From: Squalus acanthias
Taxonomy: Eukaryota
Direction of reading: 5' to 3'
Assembly (NCBI GenBank): GCA_030390025.1
Contig: CM059431.1
Coordinates: 110,548,001 to 110,612,000 of the forward strand
Length of the DNA stretch: 64,000 nucleotides
The notes beneath the pieces are model-generated. The model was not told the origin of the DNA. It ran no database searches and worked only from the letters and a program-made list of their open reading frames with translations. Position numbers and translations under genes: made by a program. Positions 1,931 to 54,130 of the stretch are shown in pieces. How positions within the stretch are numbered: position 1 is the stretch's first letter; each line of letters opens with the position of its first letter.

Positions 1931-3224
1931 GGTGTCTGAAATGGGATGAGTTCCATCCCTCGGCTCGCACTAGCTGCATGAAGTGAGTAGAGATCCATTC
2001 TCCAACTCTAGCGTCCTTCACCTTGATGAGAACCAAAAGTTTGTAATATAAAACAACTCGTTTATACCACCAGATTTCATTTTGTCTCTGGCCTGCCACA
2101 GCAGGAAGTCATTCAAAGTGCTTCAGTTCTGGTTGGAAAAAAATTTTAATTCTATCTTAGCTTTTGTTAGCTTGGGCATCAAAGAAAAGAGGGACGTGCA
2201 ACGAGGCTCATACCCCATGTTCTTTAACTTCCAACATACTGTGCCATCATATATTTCCGGGATTTATAGGCACTCTGCGGGGTAATTCCTCATATATAAA
2301 GTCTTTCGTTACCTGCCCATGTTCAAAAGAAACTGAGGAGAACGGTTAAGGTTCAGAACTTCTATTGTGTTGGAACAGATGGAGTCAAGCAGTGTTTATG
2401 TTTATGCTAATTTGTTCTCGCTACTGTATAATTTAACTTCTTGCAATTAGGTTTTAGTCTGAGCTATGTGGTCTGTTGGCTGCATGTTGATTTCAATTGT
2501 TTCAAAGGGACCTGGAGGCTATGGTGCGTAGGCCATACAATTTCTGCTATCCGCCCTTCTATCTGATAGAAGGGTTCGTTGTCCACTGGTAGCACACAAC
2601 ACAAACACATAGTCAAGTTTCGGTTCATAGGAATTGACTTTTTGTTGACTTTTTCTGTTGAGCATAAGTAAAACATATTAGGAAGAATCCTGAACTGTAG
2701 CAGGAATATGGTTAGCATCCAAGCAGGATTCTTTGCTCTTCTTTGACTAGATCTTGAATGGCTCTTCCCCTCCCGAATACGCGCCCATCTTTCCTGGCAA
2801 CTCCACGTTCGAATCCCTCCAATCAGGTTTCCACCCCTGCCACAGCACTGAACCTAAGTCACAAATGACATCCTATGTGACTGTGACCATGGCGCATTGT
2901 CCCTCCTCATCCTGCAGCCCTTTTGAACAATCGACCACACCATCATCCTCCAAGGCCTTTCCTTGGCTGTCCAGCTCAGTATCATTGGTCTTCTTTAGTT
3001 CCACTCTTACCTATCCAACCGTAGCTTTTCTTCCTGCCCCCACACTGTTACCTCTGGAATTCCTCAATGATCTATCCTCGGATTCCTCCTCTCCCTCATC
3101 TCATGCTGCCCCTTGGTGACATCTTCCAACTCCTCGGGGCCACCTTCCTCAAAGATTCTGATGACACTCAGTTCTACCTCTCCGTCACCTCTCTTGACCC
3201 CTCCACTGCCTCTCTGTGTTGTCA

Positions 3225-3425
3225 TGATGTGGAGATGCCGGTGTTGGACTGGGGTGGACAAATGTGAGAAGTGGCACAACACCAGGTTATAGTCCAACAG
3301 CTTTATTTGAAATCACAAGCTTTCGGAGCGCTGCTCCTTCACCTGACGAAGGAGCAGCGCTCCGAAAGCTTGTGATTTCAAATAAAGCTGTTGGACTATA
3401 ACCTGGTGTTGTGCGACTTCTCACA
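3225..3425. mobile_element. Foldback pLTR insertion, family B, with hammerhead motif
   Basis: 12-bp TSD TCTGTGTTGTCA at 3213-3224 and 3426-3437. Arms 3262-3340 and 3348-3426 are near-perfect reverse complements around a 7-nt loop. Confidence 0.85.
3339..3375 (+). ncRNA. Minimal type I hammerhead ribozyme motif (family B)
   Basis: TCAC-CTGACGA-A-GGAGC-agc-GCTCC-GAAA-GC-TT-GTGA: stem I, CUGANGA core, stem II, GAAA, palindromic AGCU stem III, UH. Confidence 0.75.
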
Positions 3426-3802
3426 TCTGTGTTGTCAGACTGCTTGTCTGATATCCAGTCTTGGATGAGCAGCAATTTCCTCTAGTTCAACATTAGGAAG
3501 ACTGAAGTCATCGGTTTTGGCCCTCCCCACAAACTCTGTACCCTCGCCGCCACTGATTCCACCCCCATCCCTGGCAATTGTCTCAGGCTAAACCGGATTG
3601 TTCACAAACTCTTGTAGCCTGTTCAACCCTGAGCTGAGCTTCCAACCCCATACTCTTTCCATCGTAAAAGCCGCCTATTTCTACCTCGAACATTGGTCAC
3701 CTCCGCCCTTGCCTCAGCCCATCTATCACTGAATCCAAAATAACAACAGAAAACGCTGGAAAAACTCAGCAGGCCAGGCAGCATCCGTGGAGAGAGAAAG
3801 AG

Positions 3803-3839
3803 AGTTAACGTTTCAGGTCGATGACCTTTCATCAGAACT
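3803..3839 (-). ncRNA. Minimal type I hammerhead ribozyme motif (family A), KLF12 sense strand
   Basis: AGTT-CTGATGA-A-AGGTC-atc-GACCT-GAAA-CG-TT-AACT with palindromic ACGU stem III. Confidence 0.78.
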
Positions 3840-3925
3840 GGGAAGAGCCGGAAATCAAATAGATTTAAGGCCAGGGTAAAGCTGGGAACCCTGGCCTTAA
3901 ATCTATTTGATTTCTGGCTCTTCCC

Positions 3926-3962
3926 AGTTCTGATGAAAGGTCTTCGACCTGAAACGTTAACT
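3926..3962 (+). ncRNA. Minimal type I hammerhead ribozyme motif (family A)
   Basis: AGTT-CTGATGA-A-AGGTC-ttc-GACCT-GAAA-CG-TT-AACT. Confidence 0.78.
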
Positions 3963-4734
3963 CTGTTTCTCTCTCCACGGATGCTGCCTGGCCTGCTGAG
4001 TTTTTCCAGCGTTTTCTGTTGTTATTTCGGATTTCCAGCATCCGCAGTATTTTGCTATCGTATCACTGAATCCAAGTCTTTGTCATCTCCAGACTCAACT
4101 ATTCTGATGTTCTCCTAACCAGCCTCCATTCCAGCATGCCCTGTAGACTTCAATTCATCCAAAATTCTGCTACCTGTTTTCTATCCTGTACAAAGTCCTT
4201 ACCCATCACCTCTGGCCTTGCTCACCTACATTGACACCTGATCCCCCAACGCCTCAAATTAAAATTCTCATTTTCATATTTAAATCCCATCGCGGCCTCA
4301 CCCCTCCCCATCTCTGTAACCTCCTCGAGTCCTAAAACCTCACCCCACCCAAATTCTCCATTCCTCTGACTGGCCTATTGTGCATACCCCCCCCCCCCCG
4401 CCCCTCCCCTTCCCCAGCATTGGCAGTCGTGCCTTCAGCCATCTAGGCCCCACGCTCTGGAATTCCTTCCCTAAACCCCTCCATCTCTCCACCTTCCCCA
4501 TCTTGCTTTAAAGCCCTCCTTAAAACTCAGCTCCTTGACCACGCTTTTGGTCACTTTTTCTAATATCTCCTTCTTTGTCTCAGCATCTATTTTTGCCCGA
4601 TTATACCTCTGTGAAGTGCCTTGGGACATCCTTAGCTGTTATATACATTTTTTTATTGTTGCTGTTGTGCCTTGGAATCTTGAGTATCAGAACCATCAGA
4701 AGGGGCTAGCGCGTGACTGCAATTTCATCTGAGG

Positions 4735-5781
4735 TCTCAAATTTCTGAACTGTCTCAAGGTCCTTGCAGATAAGTGTGAGACTGACTTGCAACTCACCTG
4801 CAGCCCTGTGGGCCCAGTGTCTTTTGACATAAATAGCTGGGGGCATTGGTATTAGCAAGATGGTACCTCCGGAGGAACTTCATTGGCGTGTTATCCTAAA
4901 TAACATGCTGAAATCCTGCAGTCGGACTTGCACCCATATCCTTCTGACGCGAGGCTTTGGAACATGCAAATTCCGACAATCTGATTTGATTAGTCAATTG
5001 TAGAGTAAAACAGACATTCTTCTATTTTTCAGCACCTCATCTTCCGATTAGGCACTTTACAGCCTTCCGGACGCAATATCGAGTTCAACAATTTCAGATC
5101 ATAACCTCGGCCCCCACCATATATACATTTTATCCACCCTTTTGGTTTGTGCCTTTTTCCTTTTTTTTTCTCTCTCTCTCCCCCTACGGCACCTGTCTCT
5201 CATTCTGCCAGCATTTCACACTTCACCTTTTGTTTCTTAAATCTGTCCCATTACCATCTCGTCTTGCCTTGAGCATCTCTTAATGTCTCTACTTACCATA
5301 GTTATTCCTCCCCCCAGCCTCCCCCTTGCATTTTTATCTGTTTAATTTCCTGCTCTTTTCTCAGTTCTGATGAAGGGTTTCGACCTGAACCGTTAACTCT
5401 GTTTCTCTCTCCACGGATGTTGCCTGGCCTGCTGAGTTTTTCCAGCGTTTTCTGTTGTTGTTTCAACTCTTCTATTTTTGTTTGTTAAGAGCGATTAAGC
5501 TTAAAATACCCAAATTATGGTCTATAAAGTTGGTCGGTGAAGTTCTATTTTTCCTCACAAAAAATTATTTGAGGAGCATTAAGTTCAAGAAATGACAAGT
5601 CAAGAGTTTCCAAAACAGTTTCAGTCAATGGATCAATCCAGGAAGCAAATTTTCCAAATACATAAAGATCAGCCTCTCAAATTTCGGAACTGTCTCAAGG
5701 TCCTTGCAGATAAGTGTGAGACTGACTTGCAACTCACCTGCAGCCCTGTGGACCCAGGGTCTTTTGACATAAATAGCTGGG
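4735..5781 (+). repeat. 107-bp direct duplication (4735-4841 and 5675-5781)
   Basis: 3 mismatches in 107 bp, 940-bp offset. Confidence 0.95.
5030..5467 (+). mobile_element. 5'-truncated Penelope-like element (ORF end + pLTR, family A)
   Basis: QHLIFRLGTLQPSGRNIEFNNFRS* matches the ORF end at 23560-23638. Hammerhead motif 5363-5398 has GAAA changed to GAAC. 12-bp TSD TCTTCTATTTTT at 5018-5029 and 5468-5479. Confidence 0.85.
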
Positions 5782-6229
5782 CGGGGGGGGGTTGGTAACT
5801 TTTTGTAAATTGGTATTCCACAAACCTGTACAATTACTTTTTTTGGCCAATGGTGAAGGTTATTAGTTTTGCATGCTTCTAGCAAGATGTAAACATGTAG
5901 TGAGATATAACTGTGTCCAGGTGCAGTGTTCAGGCCCTGGGATGTTTGTGTTTGAGTACAAACTTAGCAGCAAGGCGAGATTCTGTGTTATGCACATGGA
6001 GGAAAGTCTTTTTTTGGACATGCTGGTTCCTGGGTTGGAGAAAATGAGTACCGAATATAATGTAAACTGTGTTAACAGCAGAAGCACCTGCCACAGACAC
6101 AAAAGATTTTTCACCTTATTGACCACAACACGCATTATTGTGCCTTGCTCGCGGTCAAGACTGCCTACTGTTCTAGGATCAGGGAAAGGGCAACCCAAAG
6201 CTTCTTTTCTCTTTCCCGCTTTCTAAAAT

Positions 6230-18900: not shown

Positions 18901-19116
18901 ACAAATGAAGTCAAGAGAGACACCAAAAAAAGTCACCAGGGTGGGTCTTCGCCAATTTTCTTTTTAAAAAGGCCTAGATTTTCCTGGTGCCATTAACTTT
19001 TTTTTAATCCGGTGACTTTAAAAAAAAAATATTATTACCTCGCATTGATGATGATAACCTTGTGAAATAACCTTATTGCCGCTGTTAATGGAAGAAAAAT
19101 GAGTATCCAGGTATAA

Positions 19117-19334
19117 AAGTGAGAAGTCGCACAATACCAGGTTATAGTCCAACAATTTTATTTGAAATCACAAGCTTTCGGAGCGCTGCTCCTTCGTCAG
19201 GTCACTTCACCTGACGAAGGAGCAGCCGCTCTGAAAGCTCGTGATTTCAAATAAAGCTGTTGGACTATAACCTGGTGTTGTGCGACTTCTCACTTTTGTC
19301 CCCCCCAGTCCAACACCGGCATCTCCGCATCTTC
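19117..19334. mobile_element. Foldback pLTR insertion, family B, two opposed hammerhead cores
   Basis: 11-bp TSD TCCAGGTATAA at 19106-19116 and 19335-19345. CTGACGA...GAAA cores at 19168-19204 (-) and 19207-19244 (+). Confidence 0.85.
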
Positions 19335-19564
19335 TCCAGGTATAAGGCAGTGAAATTACCAATCTTCCTGCTAAATGTCAGCAGGGAAAGGGACAACTCA
19401 AGGTTGCTGACAACTCTGTTTTCTGTTTTTTTTTTGCTGTGATTACCTTCCTATCCTTACACAAGTCCTGTCATGCGTGGGGCAGAATTCCAACTCGCAT
19501 TTTTTCGGGAGCAGCACGGCTTGGAGTTAAACACATTTTACTTGTTGCTTCGAAGTAGTGCCGT

Positions 19565-23307: not shown

Positions 23308-23903
23308 ACTCCTTCAGGGTGAAACAGCGATTTACTTGTGCTTCTTACACTTTAGTATACTGTATTCGCTGCTCGCGATGCGGTCTCCTCTGCATTGGGG
23401 AGACCAAACACAGACTGGGCGAGCGTTTTGTGGAACACCTCTATTCAGTCCCTAAGCGTGAGCCCGAGTTTCCGGTCGCCTGTCACTTTAATTCTCCGCT
23501 CCACTCCCACTCTGACTTCTCCGTCCTCGGCCTCTTAAACTGTTCCAATGTAAGCTCGAGGAACAGCATCTCATCTTTCGATTAGGCACTTTACAGCCTT
23601 CTGGACTCAACATCGAGTTCAACAATTTCAGACCATAACCTCTGCCCCTATTTTTTCCACATGGCAGCTGTTGATGATTCTGCTGTTCCCATTTACACCT
23701 CTTCGAGACTCATCTTTCATTTCTTTACTTGTCCCATTACCATCTCCTTTTGCTTTGTACACTCATACCTTTTGTCATTTAATCTCTCCTGCCTTCCACC
23801 CCATCACAGACCTTCCCTTTTGTTCTTTCCTCCCCTCCTCCCTTTCCCTGCCCTTACTTAAAATCTGTTACTTCTCTAACTTTTTCCAATTCTGATGAAA
23901 GGT
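23308..23903 (+). mobile_element. Penelope-like element: GIY-YIG endonuclease C-terminal region + 3' UTR, pLTR truncated by CR1
   Basis: FTCASYTLVYCIRCSRCGLLCIGETKHRLGERFVEH...VACHFNSPLHS, frameshift near 23550, then KLEEQHLIFRLGTLQPSGLNIEFNNFRP* (stop 23636-23638). Ends at CTGATGAAAGGT. Confidence 0.9.
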
Positions 23904-24857
23904 GTTCCCCAGGGGGTCGGTTCTAGGACCACTGCTTTTCTTGATATATATTAATGACTTAGACTTGGGTATACAGGGCACAATTTCAAAATTTGCAGAT
24001 GACACAAAACTTGGAAGTATAGTGAACAGTGAGGAGGAGAGTGATAGACTTCAAGAGGACATAGACAGGCTGATGGAATGGGCGGACACGTGGCTGATGA
24101 AATTTAACACCGAAAAGTGCAAAGTGATACATTTTGGTAGAAAGAATGAGGAGAGGAAATATAAACTAAAGGGTACAATCCTAAAGGGGGTGCATGAACA
24201 GAGAGACCTAGGGGTATATGTGCACAAATCGTTGAAGGTGGTAGGGCAGGTTGAGAAAGCAGTTAAAAGAAGCACACGGGATTCTGGGCTTCAAAAATAG
24301 AGGTATAGAGTACAAAAGTGTGGAAGTTATGATGAACCTGTATAAAACACTGGTTCGGCCTCAACTGGAATATTGTGTCCAATTCTGGGCACAGCACTTT
24401 AGGAAGGATGTGAAGGCCTTAGAGAGGGTGCAGAAAAGATTTACGAGAATGGGTCCAGGGACGAGGGACTTCAGTTACGTGGATAAACTGGAGAAGCTGG
24501 GGTTGTTCTCCTTCAAGCTGAGAAGATTGAAAGGAGATTTGATAGAGGTGTTCAAAATCATGAGGGGTCTGGACAGAGTAGATAGAGGGAAACTGTTCCC
24601 ATTGGCGGAAGGGTCAAGAACCAGAGGACACAGATTTAAGGCGATTGGTAGAAGCGACATGAGGGAAAACTTTTTTTTACACAGCGAGTGGTTATGATCT
24701 GGAATGCACTGCCTGAAAGGGTGGTGGAGGCAGATTCAATCGTGGCTTTCAAAAGGAGTTGGATAAGCACCTGAAAGAAAAAAATTGCATAGCTACGGGG
24801 GAAAGGGCGGGGGAGTGGGACTAGCTGAAGTGCTCTTGCAGAGAGCCGGCACGGGCT
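23901..24857 (+). mobile_element. CR1 RT fragment
   Basis: GSVLGPLLFLIYINDLD...KFADDTKLG...RPQLEYCVQFW with frameshifts; 3' tail cut at ~24857. Confidence 0.93.
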
Positions 24858-25642: not shown

Positions 25643-26139
25643 AGACAGTTTAAATAGCAGACAGAGGAATGCCATGCAAGTGTGTGCCTGCTAATATGAC
25701 CAACAGCAATTACTAGCCTTTCATCCACCTACGCTCAACACCAATGCACTCTTCTGATGCCGACTCATCCATTTTCACAGAGGTGCTGACTGAACCTGGA
25801 GAGACAGATTTGCCCAAAGTCAATCGGGTGGTAGACATCAACTGCTAAGACTTCCCTTCGATCTGTGCAGTGACCTGTGTTTGAGGATGGAGATTAACCA
25901 TTTTTTTGTCACTTTGCCTTTAGTCAGAAGTCACACTAGTGTGATTCTTTGACATTGCACTGTGTGTCTGTAAACAAACTTAAGATTTACCAATTTTTTG
26001 TCAGAAATTCTTCAATATTAGCATTTTTGGAAAGATAATTAATGCATGCTTGAACTCATTGGCTTATCCTAAAATTACTGGGGGTGAAATTTTTTTGCCA
26101 TTATACAATGGACTAACAAACCAGGGGCCAGCTCACAAG

Positions 26140-26212
26140 TTTTTCCAGCTGAGTTTTTCCAGCGTTTTCTGTTGTTATTTCGGATTTCCAGCATCCGCAG
26201 TATTTTGCTATC
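26140..26212 (+). mobile_element. Very short Penelope pLTR 3'-end insertion (family A)
   Basis: Identical to the 3' end of the 3739-4060 copy; 13-bp TSD GCCAGCTCACAAG at 26127-26139 and 26213-26225. Confidence 0.85.
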
Positions 26213-28732
26213 GCCAGCTCACAAGAGTAGTGTTGTGAATGCTCCGGGACATCTACAATGAAAACGTGTATTTTTTTTTTGTTTAATGCATCTATATTGG
26301 TTGGTAGAAATTTCTGAACACAGAAGTGTTGGTTCGTCAGATACACTGCTGTCAGAAATGCTAACAGGAACTTCTGAACTCAAAGGTATCAGTGCCTCAA
26401 AGACACCTTCTGGTCCACAGGTTATTTGATGGGTAGCTCTTCAGCATGTTAAAGTTTGCCCTACTTTTGCACCATCTAAATGCAGAGTTGTGTTACAAGG
26501 AAGGCACTTCTGGAGGTTGTAGAAAATCCAGCATTTCACTTAATTAGGATTTCTTCAGCACAGAGGACTTTGTTTTGGCAGCACATCTCATCATGATGTT
26601 GCAGTTATATTCCAGAAGAGCTTCTGCTTGAAGTGGTTCTGTGATAGTCTTGGCTGCTTAATGCTGTGGCATCCTCCCCATTTACATTATCTGGGAGAAT
26701 CCACACCACTGGCAGCAGTCACAAACAAGGAAGCAGGACTTTCATTTCGGGTTTCTTGGACCGTTCCCAATGTCTGGGGGAGGTGTGCAAAGACCAGAAG
26801 GTGCCACATGCGTTGCTGCACTATATCAGCAGCAGTCAGCTGCCGGCCGGGGAAAATGGTGGTTATTTACAGCGCACTTCAGAAAAGCTCTTCCGGAGGC
26901 AGTGGAGCCCGGACCCACTTATCTCAGTGTTGCTGCCGGTAATGACAGCAGCAACACTGTCGCTAGGTGAATGCATCTTCAATTGTCTGTTTCTAATGTC
27001 TTTCTGGCAGTTAAGGTTCTTTTACTAGTAGAAGTATACTTGCTGTAGGTGTTGTTAGCATGGTCAGAATTGCTTTTGTCTATTCCATTTTGCAATACTG
27101 ATTTCACAGCCCAGTTATGTAATAATTCACGTGGTTTGATGTAGAAGTACTATTCTACAAGGATGGGCCCCCACTGAAAGCGACAGGAGGCCGTATTGAT
27201 GGTGCGTTACCTGTGATGGGCCATAACTGAGATGTCTTAGCAGTGCTGGGATGTTATGGGTCTTTCACACAACACTCTGTGATATCCATTGCACAACTGA
27301 TTTTTGCTTTGAGAGGACAATTTCAATAATTGTTTACGTGAAACATGGGCACTCATTTCTCCCCCCCAAAAGTTGTTCTTTGTGAGGTCGTCAACTGTCT
27401 CACTGTTCGGTTTTCCTTTTAGTTAGCGAGTCTGTGTAGTCCGAGCTACACAATTTCATTCAGACCTGAACAGGTAGCTGACGAGAGTATGACGTGAAGA
27501 TGGCAGTTTTTACAATGAGGTTTATGCACAGTTTGACAAATGCCAGCTTCACACAAACTTTCGCTCAAAGATCAAACTTGCCAAAGTCCTTATTATAACA
27601 AATGATGGTGCTGCGTTCGCTGCCATTCTCATTCTCACTGAAGAGTCTCCGTTGTATATTAGCAATGATGTCTCATATTGGTGTAAAAATGTCTGCCGTT
27701 CATTCAGCAAAAACAGCAAGGTGGCACAATGTCTCTCAGTGGCACGAGAGAAGCACTTAAAAGTAAATAAATCAAGCTCAGTATCCGACATGGAAGATTT
27801 TGAAGAAATATGCTGCCAATTGCAGCAGTTAGTTTCTCTGCTTCTGCAGTGTGTTGCCTGCTGGTGGCGACTCTTCCATTGGTTATTGGACACTGCAACG
27901 TTCTAGTCTACTCAATCTGAGCCTTTATGCTGAAAGCACCATCTGCAAGCTGCTACACAAGGCTTACTTCGCCCCCCCTCCCCCCCGTCACTATGTAACT
28001 CTGGATCATGCACATTGAACCGCGCATAGAATGCGATGTACGACTGCGCTGTAACAAAACAGTTGCAAATAACATGAAAAGTCCGACTAATGACCGAGCA
28101 GCATGAACAAGCTGCGTCTGTAAGAGGGAAGGTCGAGCAGAAAGTTCACAGCTGATGGACTTCAAAATACTGTCATTTTCCATGGGTTTTGAATTGCCCT
28201 GTCTCTTAGTATATCTGGAAGACTTCTTTCTTTAAACAAAATAACACTGGTTACAGTATTTTAAGTGTTATTTTTTCTGCCTCATTGTGTTCTCCCCATG
28301 TGTCCCTCTTTGGCTCGTGCTGTAAACAGGATCGTTACAGCATCGTAAAACATTATTGCCACTAAAAAGAAAATGTGCAAGTCAAATTTTCATTTGTAGT
28401 CTGGTTGTTGTTGTCTGAATTTTAAAAAAAATCCCCTTTTTAAGTTATGCGATTCCACGTGCCAATGTAATGGGTAAGAGGGGAGCTACTTGCAGACATC
28501 TGCCAATATTATTGTGTAACCAGATGCCAGGAGATGTGCAAGAGCAGTCGGGGGTGACTTGTTTTCTTGGTTATTTTTCTTCCCCATTGCCTGTGGGGAA
28601 AGTGTTTCTACTTCAACACAGAGTCACTTCTTTAGGGCATGACCAAAAGCTCAATCTTTGTGAGGAATTCAGGGTGGGAATCCCTGTACTTAGACAGGGT
28701 GCCGTGCACTGTTCCATCATTGTGCCATGCTA

Positions 28733-29825
28733 CCAACAACAACAACTTTTATTTATATAGCACCCTTAACGTAGCAAAACGTCCCAAGGTGCTTCACAGG
28801 AGTGTTATAAGACAAAAAATTTGACACGAGCCACATAAGGAGAAATTAGGGCAGGTGACTTGGTCAAAGAGGTGGGTTTTAAGGAGCGTCTTAAAGGAGG
28901 AAAGAGAGGTAGCGAGGCGGAGAGGCTTAGGCAGGGAATTCCAGAGCTTAGGGCCTAGGCAACAGAAGGCACGGCCACCAATGGTGGAGCGATTATAATC
29001 AGGGATGCTCAAGAGGCCAGAATTGGAGGAGCGCAGAGAGATGACGGTGGGAGAAAAGCAGAGAGGTATATACAGGGAGAAAGACAATTTAAAAAAAAAT
29101 GTCTGAACATCACCAAAGGAGATCAGCTGATAATAACTGATAAGCCATTAACAGTAGAATCGCAATATTAATGATTCCACCACCTAGAATGCCAATTTAA
29201 GTATATTAAAAAAAAACCTAACATGCTAAAATTTCTTCAAGCCAACAATGTATAATATACTCTTCAGATTTTAAGGAGCGTCTTAAAGGAGGAAAGACAG
29301 GTAGAGAGGCGGAAAGGTTTAGGCAGGGAATTCCAGAGCTTAGGGCCGAGGCAACAGAAGGCACGGCCACCAATGGTTGAGCGATTATAATCAGGGATGC
29401 TCAAGAGGGCAGAATTAGAGGAGCGCAGATATCTCGGGGGGAGTTGTGGGGCTAAAGGAGATTACAGAGATAGGGAGGGGCGAGGCCATGGAGGGATTTG
29501 AAATCGAAGCATTGCTTAACTGGGAGCCAATGTAGGTCTGCGAGCATGGGGGTGATGGGCGAACGGGACTTGGTGCGAGTTAGGACACGGGCAGCCGAGT
29601 TTTGGATGACCTCAAGTTTATGTAGGGTAGAATGCGGGAGGCCAGCCAGGAGTGCGTTGGAATAGTCAAGCCTAGAGGTAACAAAGACATGGATGAGGGT
29701 TTCAGCAGCAAATGAGCTGAGGCAAGGGCGGAGACGGGCGATGTTACGGAGGTGCAAATAGGCAGTCTTAGTTATGCTGCGGATATGTGGTCGGAAGCTC
29801 GTTTCAGGGTCAAATATGACACCTT
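28733..29825 (-). mobile_element. L2 LINE fragments (28733-29038 and 29268-29825) with a ~160-bp segment present twice
   Basis: HLRNIARLRPCLSSFAAETLIHVFVTSRLDYSNALLAGLP...IQNSAARVLT...LHWLPV; GRAFCCLGPKLWNSLP occurs twice; (TTG)n tail. Confidence 0.92.
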
Positions 29826-33149: not shown

Positions 33150-33710
33150 ACTACCATTCATAGAGCACCCTTCACATCCTTGGAATGGCTGAAAGCACTT
33201 CACAGCCAGTTTACTTTTGAATTGTAGTCACTGTTGTGAGGACAAACGTGACAGTCAACTTGCTCACAACAAGGTGCTGCCAGAAGCAAATGAATCAATG
33301 ACTAAATCGTCTGTCTTTGATAAAAAAAATACTGCGGATGTTGGAAATCTGAAATAAAAACAGGAAATGCTGGAAACACTCAGCAGGTCAGGCAACATCT
33401 GTGGAGAGAGAGAGAAACAGAGTTAACGTTTCAGGTCGATGGCCTTTCGTCAGAACTGGAACTGAAAGGTCATCGCCCTGAAACGTTAACTCTGTTTCTC
33501 TCTCTCTCCACAGATGTTGCCTGACCTGCTGAGTGTTTTCCAGGATTTCCTGTTTTTATTTCAGTCTGTCCTTGAACCTGGCGTTGGTCGAGGTTGGAAT
33601 GTTGGCCAGGACATCAGAATTCCCTATTCTTTAAATATAGTGACATGGGGATTTTTTACATTCACCTGAACAGGCGGACATGGTCTCGGTTTAACGCTTC
33701 ATCTGAAAGG
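33150..33710 (-). mobile_element. Diverged Deu-domain SINE interrupted by a Penelope foldback
   Basis: SINE tail 33150-33320 resumes at 33576 (GTTGGCCAGGACA...CTCGGTTTAACG). Confidence 0.65.
33321..33563. mobile_element. Foldback Penelope pLTR insertion, family A
   Basis: TSD GTCTGTC(T/C)TTGA at 33309-33320 and 33564-33575. Minus-strand hammerhead motif 33421-33457 (CTGACGA..GAAA-CG-TT); the plus arm starts within the core. Confidence 0.85.
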
Positions 33711-35735: not shown

Positions 35736-36656
35736 GAAAAGAAAAGAAAGACAGACTTGCATTTATACAGTGCCTTGCACAACCTCAGGACGTCCCAGAG
35801 CGCTCTACAACCAATGAAGTACTTTTTTTGAAGTGTAGTCACTGTTGTAATGTAAGAAGCGTGGCAGCCAATTTGCGCACAGCAAGCTCCCACAAACAGC
35901 AATGATAATGAATTAGCGTGTCAGCCATGGCTCAGTGGGTCAGAAAGTTGTGAGTTCAAGTCCCACTCGAGAGGCTCAAGCACAAAAATCCAGGCTGACA
36001 CTCCAGTGCAGTGCTGAGGGAGCGCTGCACTGTCAGAGGTTCCGTCTTTCGGATGAGACGTTAAACCGAGGCCCCGTCTGCCCTCTCAGGTGGATGTAAA
36101 AGATCCAATGGCACTATTTCGAAGAAGAACAGGGGAGTTATCCCTGGTGTCTTGGCCAATATTTATCCCTCAATCAACATCACTAAAAAAACAGATTATC
36201 TGGTCATTATCACATTGCTGTTTGTGGGAGTTTGCTGAGCGCGAATTGGCTGCCGTGTTTCCTACATTACAACAGTGACTCCACTTCAAAAGTAATTCAT
36301 TGGCTGTAAATCTTTGGGACATCCTGAGGTCATGAAAGGCGTTATATAAATGCAAGTCTTTCTTTATATAATCTGTTTTTATGTGTTGGTTGTGGAATAT
36401 ATATTGGCCAGGACACTGGGGAGAACACCCCTGTTCTTCTTTGAAATAGTGCCATGGAATCTTTGACATCCACCTGAGAGGGCAGACGGGGCCTCAGTTT
36501 AATGTCTCATCCAAAAGACGGCACCTCCCACAGTGCAGCACTTCGTCGGTACTGCACTGGGAGCGTCGGCCTGGATTCTGTGCTCAAGTCTCTGGAGTGC
36601 GACTTGAACCCAAGGCCTGCTGACTCAGAGCGCGAGAGTGCTACCCACTGAGCCAC
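35736..36656 (-). mobile_element. Deu-domain SINE (tail 35736-35911, body/head 36368-36656) split by an oppositely oriented copy
   Basis: The two minus-strand pieces are contiguous in the family consensus. Confidence 0.85.
35919..36366 (+). mobile_element. Deu-domain SINE, near full length
   Basis: TGGCTCAGTGGG, GTTCAAGTCC, Deu-like core, tail GAAAGGCGTTATATAAATGCAAGTCTT. Confidence 0.88.
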
Positions 36657-37003
36657 TGCCTTAAAAGTCCTAACATTCCAGTGTTCATGGAGTCAAGGCT
36701 TCATAACATAATCCCCTTCATACTGCCAAGGGCCATGAACATATCAAGTTTGATCACCATGAATTGGATGTGCATTTAAATACCTAATATCACTGTCTTT
36801 CTGGATTGTTGCAATGTAGAAGCACACCTAACACGAGATTGACAGGGATAGGGTGCCTCTACCCGAGCAGAGGGTATCATATAAACAGAACCAGTCACAA
36901 GACTGATGCTGACTGGAAACCTGCTGCCGTGAAACTGCATGTGATTAGATGCACTCTTTAGACTAGTAGGGATAAAATAAAAATGAATAACTAACAAGAA
37001 AGA

Positions 37004-37209
37004 CCTGATGTGGAGATGCCGGTGTTGGACTGGGGTGGACAAATGTGAGAAGTCGCACAACACCAGGTTATAGTCCAACAGCTTTATTTGAAATCACAAG
37101 CTTTCGGAGCGCTGCTCCACTTCACCTGACGAAGGAGCAGCACTCCGAAAGCTCGTGATTTCAAATAAGCTGTTGGACTATAACCTGGTGTTGTGCGACT
37201 TCTCACATT
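37004..37209. mobile_element. Foldback pLTR insertion, family B, hammerhead motif 37122-37158 (+)
   Basis: 12-bp TSD TAACAAGAAAGA at 36992-37003 and 37210-37221; TCAC-CTGACGA-A-GGAG-cagca-CTCC-GAAA-GC-TC-GTGA. Confidence 0.85.
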
Positions 37210-37954
37210 TAACAAGAAAGAGATTGGGTACATAAACTGCCACTTGACATAGACTAGATTCGTCTGGATTTCAGAGACTGGACGCTGTCCACAAAAGTGC
37301 AAGGACATGGGGAGCCCCCTACTTGAGCATCATGCCTTGGTTACTTCTCACAATGCTCCTACCACAAAAGTCCGAGAGACTAAATGTTCCCCCCAGTAGA
37401 ACATGGGGTAAGAACTCTGGAAAAACAAGAGAACAAAAATACTTAACAACTGCTGCGGTTCCAGTCACCGACATCAAGCAACAAGGAGCAGATATTTTTG
37501 ACAAGAAACAAACAACATCTGAAACAGGTAGAGCCACATAATTGGCACTTTGACAAGACACGCAGAGAATACTTGAGGAGGGGATGGGGGCGAATGCACC
37601 AAGAAATACATTTTATTACATTATCTTAGTAGTGTGCTCCTGGCAAGGAGAAAGAATAGGCAATAGAGGACTCCTTGTACTCTTCAAGATGACAATTATA
37701 GATGGCCCCTTACATTAGGAGATTAGAAGGGAGAACATTTCTTTTGTTAAAATATACTCTAGAAACACACTCCAACACGCTTAAATTCGAGAACCAGAAA
37801 GAAGTATATACAGACAGCAAAGTTCTGTACGCATCGCAGTAATTAGCTATACCACATGATCTGCGCTTAAAAGATTCACGTTTTGTAAAAGCTCTGCCAC
37901 GATGTTAGTACCACAGATAATTGGGGAGGGATACCGTTTTTCAGAACACATGTA

Positions 37955-53755: not shown

Positions 53756-53869
53756 TAGGAGGGTATATAGGTGAGAAAAAAACACCCCAAGTAAACATTT
53801 TCTATATTTAAAAAGAGTGTTATGAGATGATCAGTGAAGCTTCTAGAAAATAGACATGAATACAGTGCA

Positions 53870-54130
53870 CGATAGCAAAATACTACGGATGCTGGAAATC
53901 CGAAATAACAACAGAAAACGCTGGAAAAACTCAGCAGGCCAGGCAGCATCCGTGGAGAGAGAAACAGAGTTAACGTTTCAGGTCGAAGACCCTTCGTCGG
54001 AACTGGAAAAAAGCAGGAAATGAAATAGATTTAAAGCAAGGATAAAGCTGGGAAAAGGGGGAGGGAATGAAAGAACAAAAGGAGAGATTAAGAGACATTG
54101 AAAGACATTAAGAGATAATCAAGGCACGAG
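53870..54130 (-). mobile_element. Penelope pLTR (family A), monomeric, hammerhead core mutated to CCGACGA
   Basis: Reverse complement of 3890-4060; motif at 53968-54004. Confidence 0.85.

Follow-up and report, generated by a model that had tools for sequence, protein, structure and literature searches.

A 322-base hairpin with two opposed hammerhead motifs as a probable insertion of head-to-head Penelope-like element stumps

Features of the Locus

The window, which denotes the whole 64,000-nt stretch of DNA analysed here, contains a 322-base hairpin at 3739-4060, a head-to-head repeat of 139 bp with a 98% match that lies between two copies of a target site duplication (TSD). The hairpin is located within a decayed LINE remnant, and its arms align to copies of a repeat referred to here as family A. 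The features of the locus are listed below.

3430..4640, + strand: host sequence, a decayed LINE 3′ remnant interrupted by the element; flanks colinear with the copy at 29269-29810 (− strand), 64% identity
3724..3738, no strand: TSD, left copy; 15/15 exact, only two copies in the window
3739..3888, − strand: left arm, a tail-less 5′-truncated pLTR copy of 150 nt, 5′ end at C3-53, including the apparent loop 3878-3887 (alignment to family A copies; loose contig ends at 3888)
3803..3839, − strand: minimal type I hammerhead motif, C3 at 3835, predicted cut 3807/3806 (motif scan and fold)
3878..3888, − strand: turn, in which the left arm extends for a further 10 nt and 1 nt (3888) is common to both arms (family alignment)
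3888..4060, + strand: right arm, a tailed 5′-truncated pLTR copy of 173 nt, 5′ end at C3-42 (alignment to family A copies)
3926..3962, + strand: minimal type I hammerhead motif, C3 at 3930, predicted cut 3958/3959 (motif scan and fold)
4027..4060, + strand: one-sided 3′ tail of 34 nt, a signature of Penelope-like elements (PLEs), on the right arm only
4061..4075, no strand: TSD, right copy; exact repeat of the left copy

Between the two TSD copies, an inverted stump of 150 nt without a tail is followed by a tailed one of 173 nt. The original prediction, made from the letters alone, of a foldback bounded by a 15-bp TSD proved correct. A repeat search returned arms at 3732-3877 and 3888-4033 (146 nt, 97% complementary, 10-nt gap), the outer 7 nt of which extend into the left TSD copy; within the TSD bounds, the arms occupy 3739-3877 and 3888-4026 (139 bp, 3 differences). 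The TSD 15-mer, TATCACTGAATCCAA, occurs exactly twice on the + strand of the 64 kb (3724-3738 and 4061-4075) and nowhere on the − strand, and among random 322-nt intervals used as a control, a 15-nt exact repeat near both ends was detected in 0/3000 and a 12-nt one in 2/3000. On the other hand, the 10-nt loop that had been taken for a spacer is family sequence and belongs to the left arm, whose end is at 3888, and the turn at 3878-3888 contains no untemplated bases. Both arms are truncated at most 55 nt upstream of the ribozyme, and no ORF lies between them.

The 3 differences between the arms, their asymmetry, which is typical of the family, and the bounding TSD speak against an assembly artefact, which was rejected. 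No contig bridging the turn was present among the 15 of 674 contig joints listed for four other organisms (A, B, C, and F; see below). The arms differ at one site of loop II, where either letter is seen in other copies, and an origin from two source RNAs was dropped, since this difference is too little to count as evidence. The earlier prediction had also missed the absence from the left arm of the 34-nt right-arm tail and the A-U pair at hammerhead positions 10.1-11.1.

Host LINE Remnant and Orthologous Site

The interrupted LINE remnant, which we take to be of the L2 type, has a private 7-nt deletion that is spanned by both TSD copies, and therefore the duplication is younger than the decay of its host. 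When the paralogue was compared with constructs carrying one or two TSD copies, both scored 198 bits, a score that does not discriminate between them.

With regard to the orthologous site, a 264-nt contig of organism C aligns to 4061-4253 (4 differences), and no fit to the element tail is seen in its first 71 letters. A variant that lies at 3690, 34 nt from 3724, is equally deep, as would be expected of an empty allele. Similarly, a contig of organism B aligns to 3624-3737 (2 differences) without continuing into the element in its last 47 letters. These contigs appear to point to an empty site in both organisms, the joint itself being absent from the 15 of 674 joints listed. The arm-to-arm difference (3/139) resembles the flank differences (2/114 in organism B and 4/193 in organism C), which suggests that the insertion is roughly as old as the splits from these two organisms.

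Family A and Family B Insertions in the Window

Seven family A insertions (at about 1496, 3739, 5030, 23308, 26140, 33321, and 53869) and three family B insertions (3225, 19117, and 37004) were found in the window. Those that bear most on the hairpin are as follows.

5030..5467, + strand: uninverted, tail-less family A copy comprising an ORF C-terminus (5030-5104), 3′ UTR/pLTR, and hammerhead (alignment, TSD, translation)
5018-5029 and 5468-5479: 12-bp TSD of the preceding copy
23308..23903, + strand: related PLE fragment comprising a GIY-YIG end, 3′ UTR, and half of a hammerhead; a LINE RT fragment comes next (alignment, translation, homologs)
33321..33563 (33309-33575 with TSDs), no strand: second family A foldback, of another subfamily, with the tail on the left arm, the turn inside the core, and a 12-bp TSD (1 mismatch)
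3225..3425 (3213-3437), no strand: family B foldback in the same host LINE remnant as 3739-4060, 290 nt to the left
19117-19334 (19106-19345) and 37004-37209 (36992-37221): family B foldbacks

Each of the five foldbacks (two of family A and three of family B) is composed of one tailed and one tail-less arm and has an 11-15-bp TSD and its own turn. The tails of the four other than 3739-4060 are 28-39 nt long, the tail side flips between copies, and the turn of 33321-33563 includes 1-3 untemplated bases. In each of the family B foldbacks, a single tail of 38-39 nt is combined with a TSD of 11-12 bp, and the turn, although always at the hammerhead, differs from copy to copy. Overall, TSDs of 11-17 bp are present at 8/10 insertions, with none found for the 53869 copy and the 23308 fragment left out. 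Uninverted copies occur both with a tail (three, beginning at 1496, 26140, and 53869) and without one (5030-5467), which indicates that both reverse transcription (RT) starts are also used on their own.

Several of the uninverted copies have features of their own. The family A copy at 1479-1877 (− strand) has a 17-bp TSD with one mismatch and, at 1815-1860, some 45 nt of filler, and the tailed copy at 53869-54100, for which no TSD of at least 8 bp was found within 1.4 kb, is the closest relative of the 3739-4060 subfamily. A tailed family A stump of 74 nt with a 13-bp TSD (26127-26225) shows a 10-nt partial tandem at its 5′ end, which is a miniature of the partial-tandem layout of PLEs. In addition, a direct repeat of about 107 nt (by eye) flanks the 5030-5467 copy at 4736-4842 and 5676-5782.

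Link to a PLE ORF and Clade Assignment

The original prediction assigned the pLTR to Penelope through two copies said to join it to a GIY-YIG ORF end. One of these copies upholds the link. At the sequence level, the 5030-5467 copy, which is 91.8% identical to 23564-23648 and 90.8% identical to the right arm (3901-4028), provides a firm connection between family A and an ORF, as an ORF end (last codons QHLIFRLGTLQPSGRNIEFNNFRS, then stop) and the pLTR lie within a single TSD-bounded copy. The 23308-23903 copy does not serve this purpose, since it matches 3739-4060 over only 47 nt (77%, E 2e-4) and breaks off inside stem II. Its endonuclease (EN) is broken, with C in place of the YIG tyrosine and a frame change near 23550, and a LINE RT fragment (23899-24697; RVT_1, E 5e-11) starts exactly at its break in stem II. 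No ORF link was seen in the window for family B, and no PLE reverse transcriptase is present in the 64 kb.

A 79-aa fragment of the 23308 copy has 2034 homologous proteins at E ≤ 0.001. Among the 12 scanned, which were the longest or best of 150 listed, GIY-YIG was detected in 12/12 and an upstream RVT_1 in 8/12 at E ≤ 0.05, and the curated GIY-YIG cut-off was passed by only 2/12; the EN fragment of the window itself gave no GIY-YIG match in Pfam. The fragment at 23313-23549 retains C20, C23, H42, and H58, which are invariant against 8 homologs (CCHH motif), and a DKG motif was found in 6/6 long homologs. A further protein search returned one chimeric-looking match. Features of EN+ PLEs that are found here are a pLTR directly 3′ of a GIY-YIG/CCHH ORF end, a one-sided tail of 30-40 bp, and an inverted 5′-truncated copy with a variable short TSD.

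The origin of the hairpin from a PLE pLTR stood, and the name Penelope should be replaced by EN+ PLE, probably of the Neptune/Nematis type rather than Penelope/Poseidon as judged from homologs only. A CX2-5CxxC linker between RT and EN is present in 8/8 aligned homologs (the window fragment begins downstream of it), and in the part of PMC8557442 concerned, this linker is a hallmark of Neptune and Nematis that Penelope/Poseidon lack.

Hammerhead Motifs

Both hammerhead motifs were recovered intact and opposed by motif scan and fold at the positions predicted from the letters, and the core alignment agreed with the prediction that families A and B have a minimal hammerhead architecture in common. 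Each core consists of a 4-bp stem I, CUGAUGA, one extra A, a 5-bp stem II with a 3-nt loop, GAAA, the palindrome ACGU, and U17. All elements of a minimal type I hammerhead were found, i.e., CUGANGA with an extra H, helix II, GAAA, palindromic 15.1-16.1, NUH, and a short helix I. A strict hammerhead descriptor gave 4 matches in the window versus 0 in 200 first-order Markov simulations. The motif at 3803-3839 fits the published consensus (CUGANGAH..GAAAN, palindrome, NUH) except for the A10.1-U11.1 pair, which is A-U rather than G10.1-C11.1 in both arms; family B has G-C at this pair, and three further family A copies, of which two are included in the alignment, have G-U. In the part of PMC4209133 concerned, the G10.1-C11.1 consensus of minimal hammerheads exceeds 80% and is not absolute. 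A reading of GUU as a defect was dropped, as GUU is common in PLE motifs, with 12 of 44 published alignment rows carrying it; no passage on GUU was found in the accessible part of PMC1636495.

In an alignment of 8 cores chosen as gap-free (5 of family A and 3 of family B), 95.8% of the cells are paired and double changes are found in 7/9 pairs. The alignment leaves out the copies at 5363, 33463, 23892, and 19207 and two truncated family B arms, and its covariation amounts essentially to one event, family A versus family B. No hammerhead family was matched in Rfam (E ≤ 1); the only matches, to miRNA-like hairpins below the gathering score, reflect nothing other than the hairpin.

The whole element folds as a single rod, with a fold z-score of −40.9, which is what any long inverted repeat yields. 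The predicted cost of a hammerhead-ready fold (stems I and II forced) is 59.5 kcal/mol on the + strand and 58.9 kcal/mol on the − strand; it is 52-60 kcal/mol for nascent + transcripts and 3.0-4.5 kcal/mol for an arm alone. On either strand, the antisense arm precedes the core in the transcript and pairs with it, which buries the core. In addition, stem III is unclosed in a monomer, so a second RNA would be required to form it, and in the computed fold of two isolated cores, the hammerhead dimer was not the minimum-energy state. The statement that a transcript of either strand contains a core holds as far as the presence of both cores is concerned, and its implication of a usable ribozyme is not supported, given the predicted burial of about 59 kcal/mol. 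If made, a transcript of the insertion would be a 139-bp duplex and a dsRNA source, not a ribozyme. The hammerheads are passengers derived from the pLTR, and the presence of two intact cores is a by-product of a turn that lies 42-53 nt upstream of them.

Contigs of Four Other Organisms

Contig sets of organisms A, B, C, and F were aligned to 3450-4400 (951 nt). The numbers of contigs that fit this stretch were 30,575 (A), 53,513 (B), 5,681 (C), and 86,521 (F), with the depth concentrated on the element. Among the 24 of 2134 loose ends listed, records end in two classes with unrelated flanks, at 4028 (175 and 402 records) and at 4056-4063 (207-331 records), and by sequence, these classes appear to be the tail signature. 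Loose ends at 3888 enter the normal upstream sequence of the family in 2/4 runs (23 and 5 records, agreement 0.98 and 0.84). Depth at 3866-3897 is present in organisms A and C and zero in B and F, which suggests that the subfamily is limited to certain lineages.

A total of 674 distinct fold-back joints were found, a number to be read with the caveats that the region upstream of 3924 is subfamily-specific and that library artefacts can also fold back; 15 joints were listed, by an unclear sort rule. Some of these have a depth of 100-366, compared with 2-20 for single-copy flank contigs. The deepest, 3830>3954, 3837>3947, and 3785>3946, reach 213-366 in 1-3 contigs. Such deep joints may be junctions copied as units, or the contig means may be inflated by shared words.

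Origin of the Insertion

Taken as a whole, the element at 3739-4060 is probably a dead-on-arrival insertion of an EN-bearing Penelope-like retrotransposon that consists of two head-to-head pLTR 3′-end stumps; its identity, considered separately, is held with high confidence. Because all five foldbacks of the window have different turns, each insertion would have generated its mirror arm anew, the most likely route being the priming of both target strands. Briefly, the endonuclease of the element would nick both target strands 15 bp apart, and each nick would prime reverse transcription on uncleaved element RNA. One cDNA would start at the distal start and carry the tail, and the other would start 34 nt further in and lack it. 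Both would stop early, approximately 150-170 nt on, and would be joined 5′ end to 5′ end at a 1-nt overlap, after which repair would leave the 15-bp TSD. Dual target priming is the mechanism towards which we lean, with somewhat better than even confidence. It takes in the observed TSD, one-sided tail, family-derived loop, copy-specific turns, and arms that run through the cut site; the two nicks, the two priming events, and their order are what we infer.

The predicted cut site is traversed by all ten foldback arms of the window, which indicates that the templates were uncleaved. Of six tail-less ends, five share at least 1 base with the TSD (P ~0.011 at an assumed 0.3 per end), and at 3739-4060, the continuation of the element agrees with 6 of the first 7 bases of the TSD. 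For a purified anole PLE protein, a predicted dimer, cleavage and extension of both target strands on uncleaved RNA were reported in part of PMC11167929, with two internal RT start sites that bound the tail. By analogy, the window evidence fits the behaviour of this protein. The arm that owns the loop, i.e., reaches further 5′, is the tail-less one in 3/5 foldbacks (3739-4060 included) and the tailed one in 2/5. Simple snap-back of the first cDNA was excluded for the former three, because such a cDNA must own both tail and loop.

Some observations suit a hairpin intermediate better, in which self-priming comes first and the endonuclease then trims the tail from one arm and integrates the product. 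Arm ends lie within 6-16 nt of each other in 5/5 foldbacks, and this near-symmetry, although from only five foldbacks, is predicted by a hairpin intermediate and not by two independent cDNAs; the 98% likeness of the arms points the same way. Self-priming on an antisense template was proposed by Arkhipova 2013 (in the relevant part of PMC3846280), and the tail was ascribed to EN-mediated resolution in the corresponding part of PMC8557442. However, where the tail-less arm owns the loop (3/5), trimming would have to ignore which arm was the template, the overlap at the turn (0-4 nt) is weak for self-priming, the target overlap at tail-less ends speaks against this route, and both strands were primed from the target in vitro (PMC11167929, in part). 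We consider such an intermediate possible but unlikely. Dual priming also has to face the deep joints, which could mean that some foldbacks are copied as units. These high depths and the 97% likeness of the family B foldbacks at 3225 and 37004 over 204 nt would be explained if the entire 322 nt moved as one unit of a non-autonomous, MITE- or retrozyme-like fold-back family, and tandem retrozymes do derive from PLE pLTRs (bioRxiv 10.64898/2026.07.22.740005, in part). Nevertheless, the turns differ in 5/5 window foldbacks, 674 distinct joints (15 listed) occur in the other organisms, the tail side flips and the TSD length varies (11-17), contigs leave the turn at 3888 into normal upstream family sequence, and no tandem array was found, all of which makes movement as a unit quite improbable. 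Two specific forms do not fit: a MITE or fold-back DNA transposon, given termini that differ by the tail, TSDs of 11-17 bp, and five turns in five copies, and a non-LTR retrozyme, given head-to-head arms and no direct tandem of the unit.

Even less probable, and hardly credible, is a functional bidirectional self-cleaving cassette that would cut host transcripts of either strand. The intactness of both cores and the covariation of stems I and II between families A and B are in its favour, but the cores are predicted to be buried by about 59 kcal/mol and stem III cannot close in a monomer. In the published data concerned, metazoan minimal hammerheads show no cleavage as monomers and low cleavage as dimers (PMC4209133, in part), the anole PLE motif needs protein (PMC11167929, in part), and Xenopus retrozyme dimers were cut in 1/9 cases and uncut in 8/9 (bioRxiv 10.64898/2026.07.22.740005, in part). 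Moreover, the arms are only 2% apart, so their intactness reflects youth, the site looks absent in two related organisms, and no host gene was found in the 39 ORFs scanned of 75 long ones in the window.

Turn Position at the Hammerhead Core

The position of the turn deserves separate mention. In the window, the turn lies within 8 nt of C3 in 4/5 foldbacks, and none of five uninverted copies ends there (Fisher one-sided 0.024, two-sided 0.048, post hoc). At the level of arms, 8/10 ends are within 8 nt of C3, two family B values being lower bounds and two arms being accurate to 1-2 nt. Among the 15 of 674 joints listed for organisms A, B, C, and F, 13 have both ends inside the core. The hairpin at 3739-4060 is the exception, with its turn 42-53 nt upstream of C3.

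Stalling at a folded ribozyme, or template pairing via stem III, would explain both the core turns and the near-symmetry. In a speculative extension, which we regard as doubtful, the minimal hammerhead of PLEs would act as a pairing or stopping signal rather than a cutter, with two RNAs kissing via the palindromic stem III. A dimeric RT would copy the kissing RNAs from two target nicks, and the cDNAs would meet and join at the ribozyme. This lead is kept weak because of small numbers and detection bias. No report of turn positions or of a pairing role for the hammerhead was found in the literature covered, which included few subscription papers. If true, the function of the PLE hammerhead could be tested from sequence through thousands of such junctions per genome, and a pile-up of turns at the hammerhead would imply a role of the ribozyme in cDNA synthesis that needs no cleavage.

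Relation to Known Systems

The hairpin is an ordinary member of a described class, whose layout and motifs are already in print. An inverted 5′-truncated copy with a one-end tail of 30-40 bp and a TSD is known for PLEs (parts of PMC8557442, PMC3846280, and PMC2377424). Like complex insertions of EN+ PLEs, the family shows head-to-head arms, a short TSD, heavy 5′ truncation, and a GIY-YIG ORF just upstream of the pLTR, and the tail is on one arm (34 nt here versus 34-37 in D. virilis and 31 in A. vaga, in the parts concerned). Unlike in those insertions, no ORF is left between the arms, and the TSD is 15 bp rather than the 8-10 bp of the A. vaga examples given there.

A paper of 2014 (PMC4209133, in part) already describes opposed pairs of minimal hammerheads 100-700 bp apart, together with the palindrome and the extra nucleotide. 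As in the metazoan PLE motifs of that paper, the cores here are of type I, with a nucleotide between 9 and 10.1, a short helix I, and palindromic 15.2-16.2. ACGU followed by U17 was counted by eye in 12 of the 44 alignment rows examined. In contrast to the G-C of the PLE consensus, the pair is A10.1-U11.1 here, as in a few published rows (e.g., D. willistoni and Latimeria 2). No chondrichthyan row is present in the examined part of the alignment, and the terms "shark", "Callorhinchus", and "Leucoraja" are absent from its supplement file 2.

The hairpin also resembles the behaviour of PAc, the Poseidon of Anolis carolinensis (Frangieh et al. 2024, PMC11167929, in part), in the two RT starts bounding the tail, the cutting and extension of both strands, and the uncleaved template, whereas the clade is a different one. 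In the results part of that paper, no inverted product is derived and no cDNA stop sites are reported, and the accessible supplement text is without the terms inverted, tail, truncat, and HHR.

A search for papers on family A (Penelope with hammerhead, shark/elasmobranch, Neptune, twin priming, and hairpin endo-siRNA), which covered few subscription papers, found none. In LINE-1 twin priming, two target-primed cDNAs are joined at a short overlap, which results in a 5′ inversion inside one TSD; adjacent, non-overlapping RNA segments are copied there, whereas both arms here copy the same stretch. Animal non-LTR retrozymes were reportedly treated by Cervera and de la Pena in 2020. The hairpin resembles the retrozymes discussed in part of Li et al. 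2026 (bioRxiv) in being non-coding, of hammerhead type I, and derived from a PLE pLTR, but retrozymes are head-to-tail tandem units, in contrast to the head-to-head arrangement with a TSD and a copy-specific turn found here. Tandem retrozymes were reported in one chondrichthyan in the same source (bioRxiv 10.64898/2026.07.22.740005).

As an object, the hairpin matters little, being one of very many dead PLE stumps. Its value lies in the clear record that it preserves of PLE integration, the mechanism of which is still open in the literature. Dual priming can be told apart from a hairpin intermediate by reading, copy by copy, which side has the tail, which arm owns the loop, how the ends overlap the target, and where the turn lies. 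Such hairpins in transcribed DNA may also be sources of dsRNA and small RNAs. Another opposed pair in the window is formed by two SINE-like repeat copies (36003-36179 and 36384-36560), which lie 204 nt apart and are 86% complementary.
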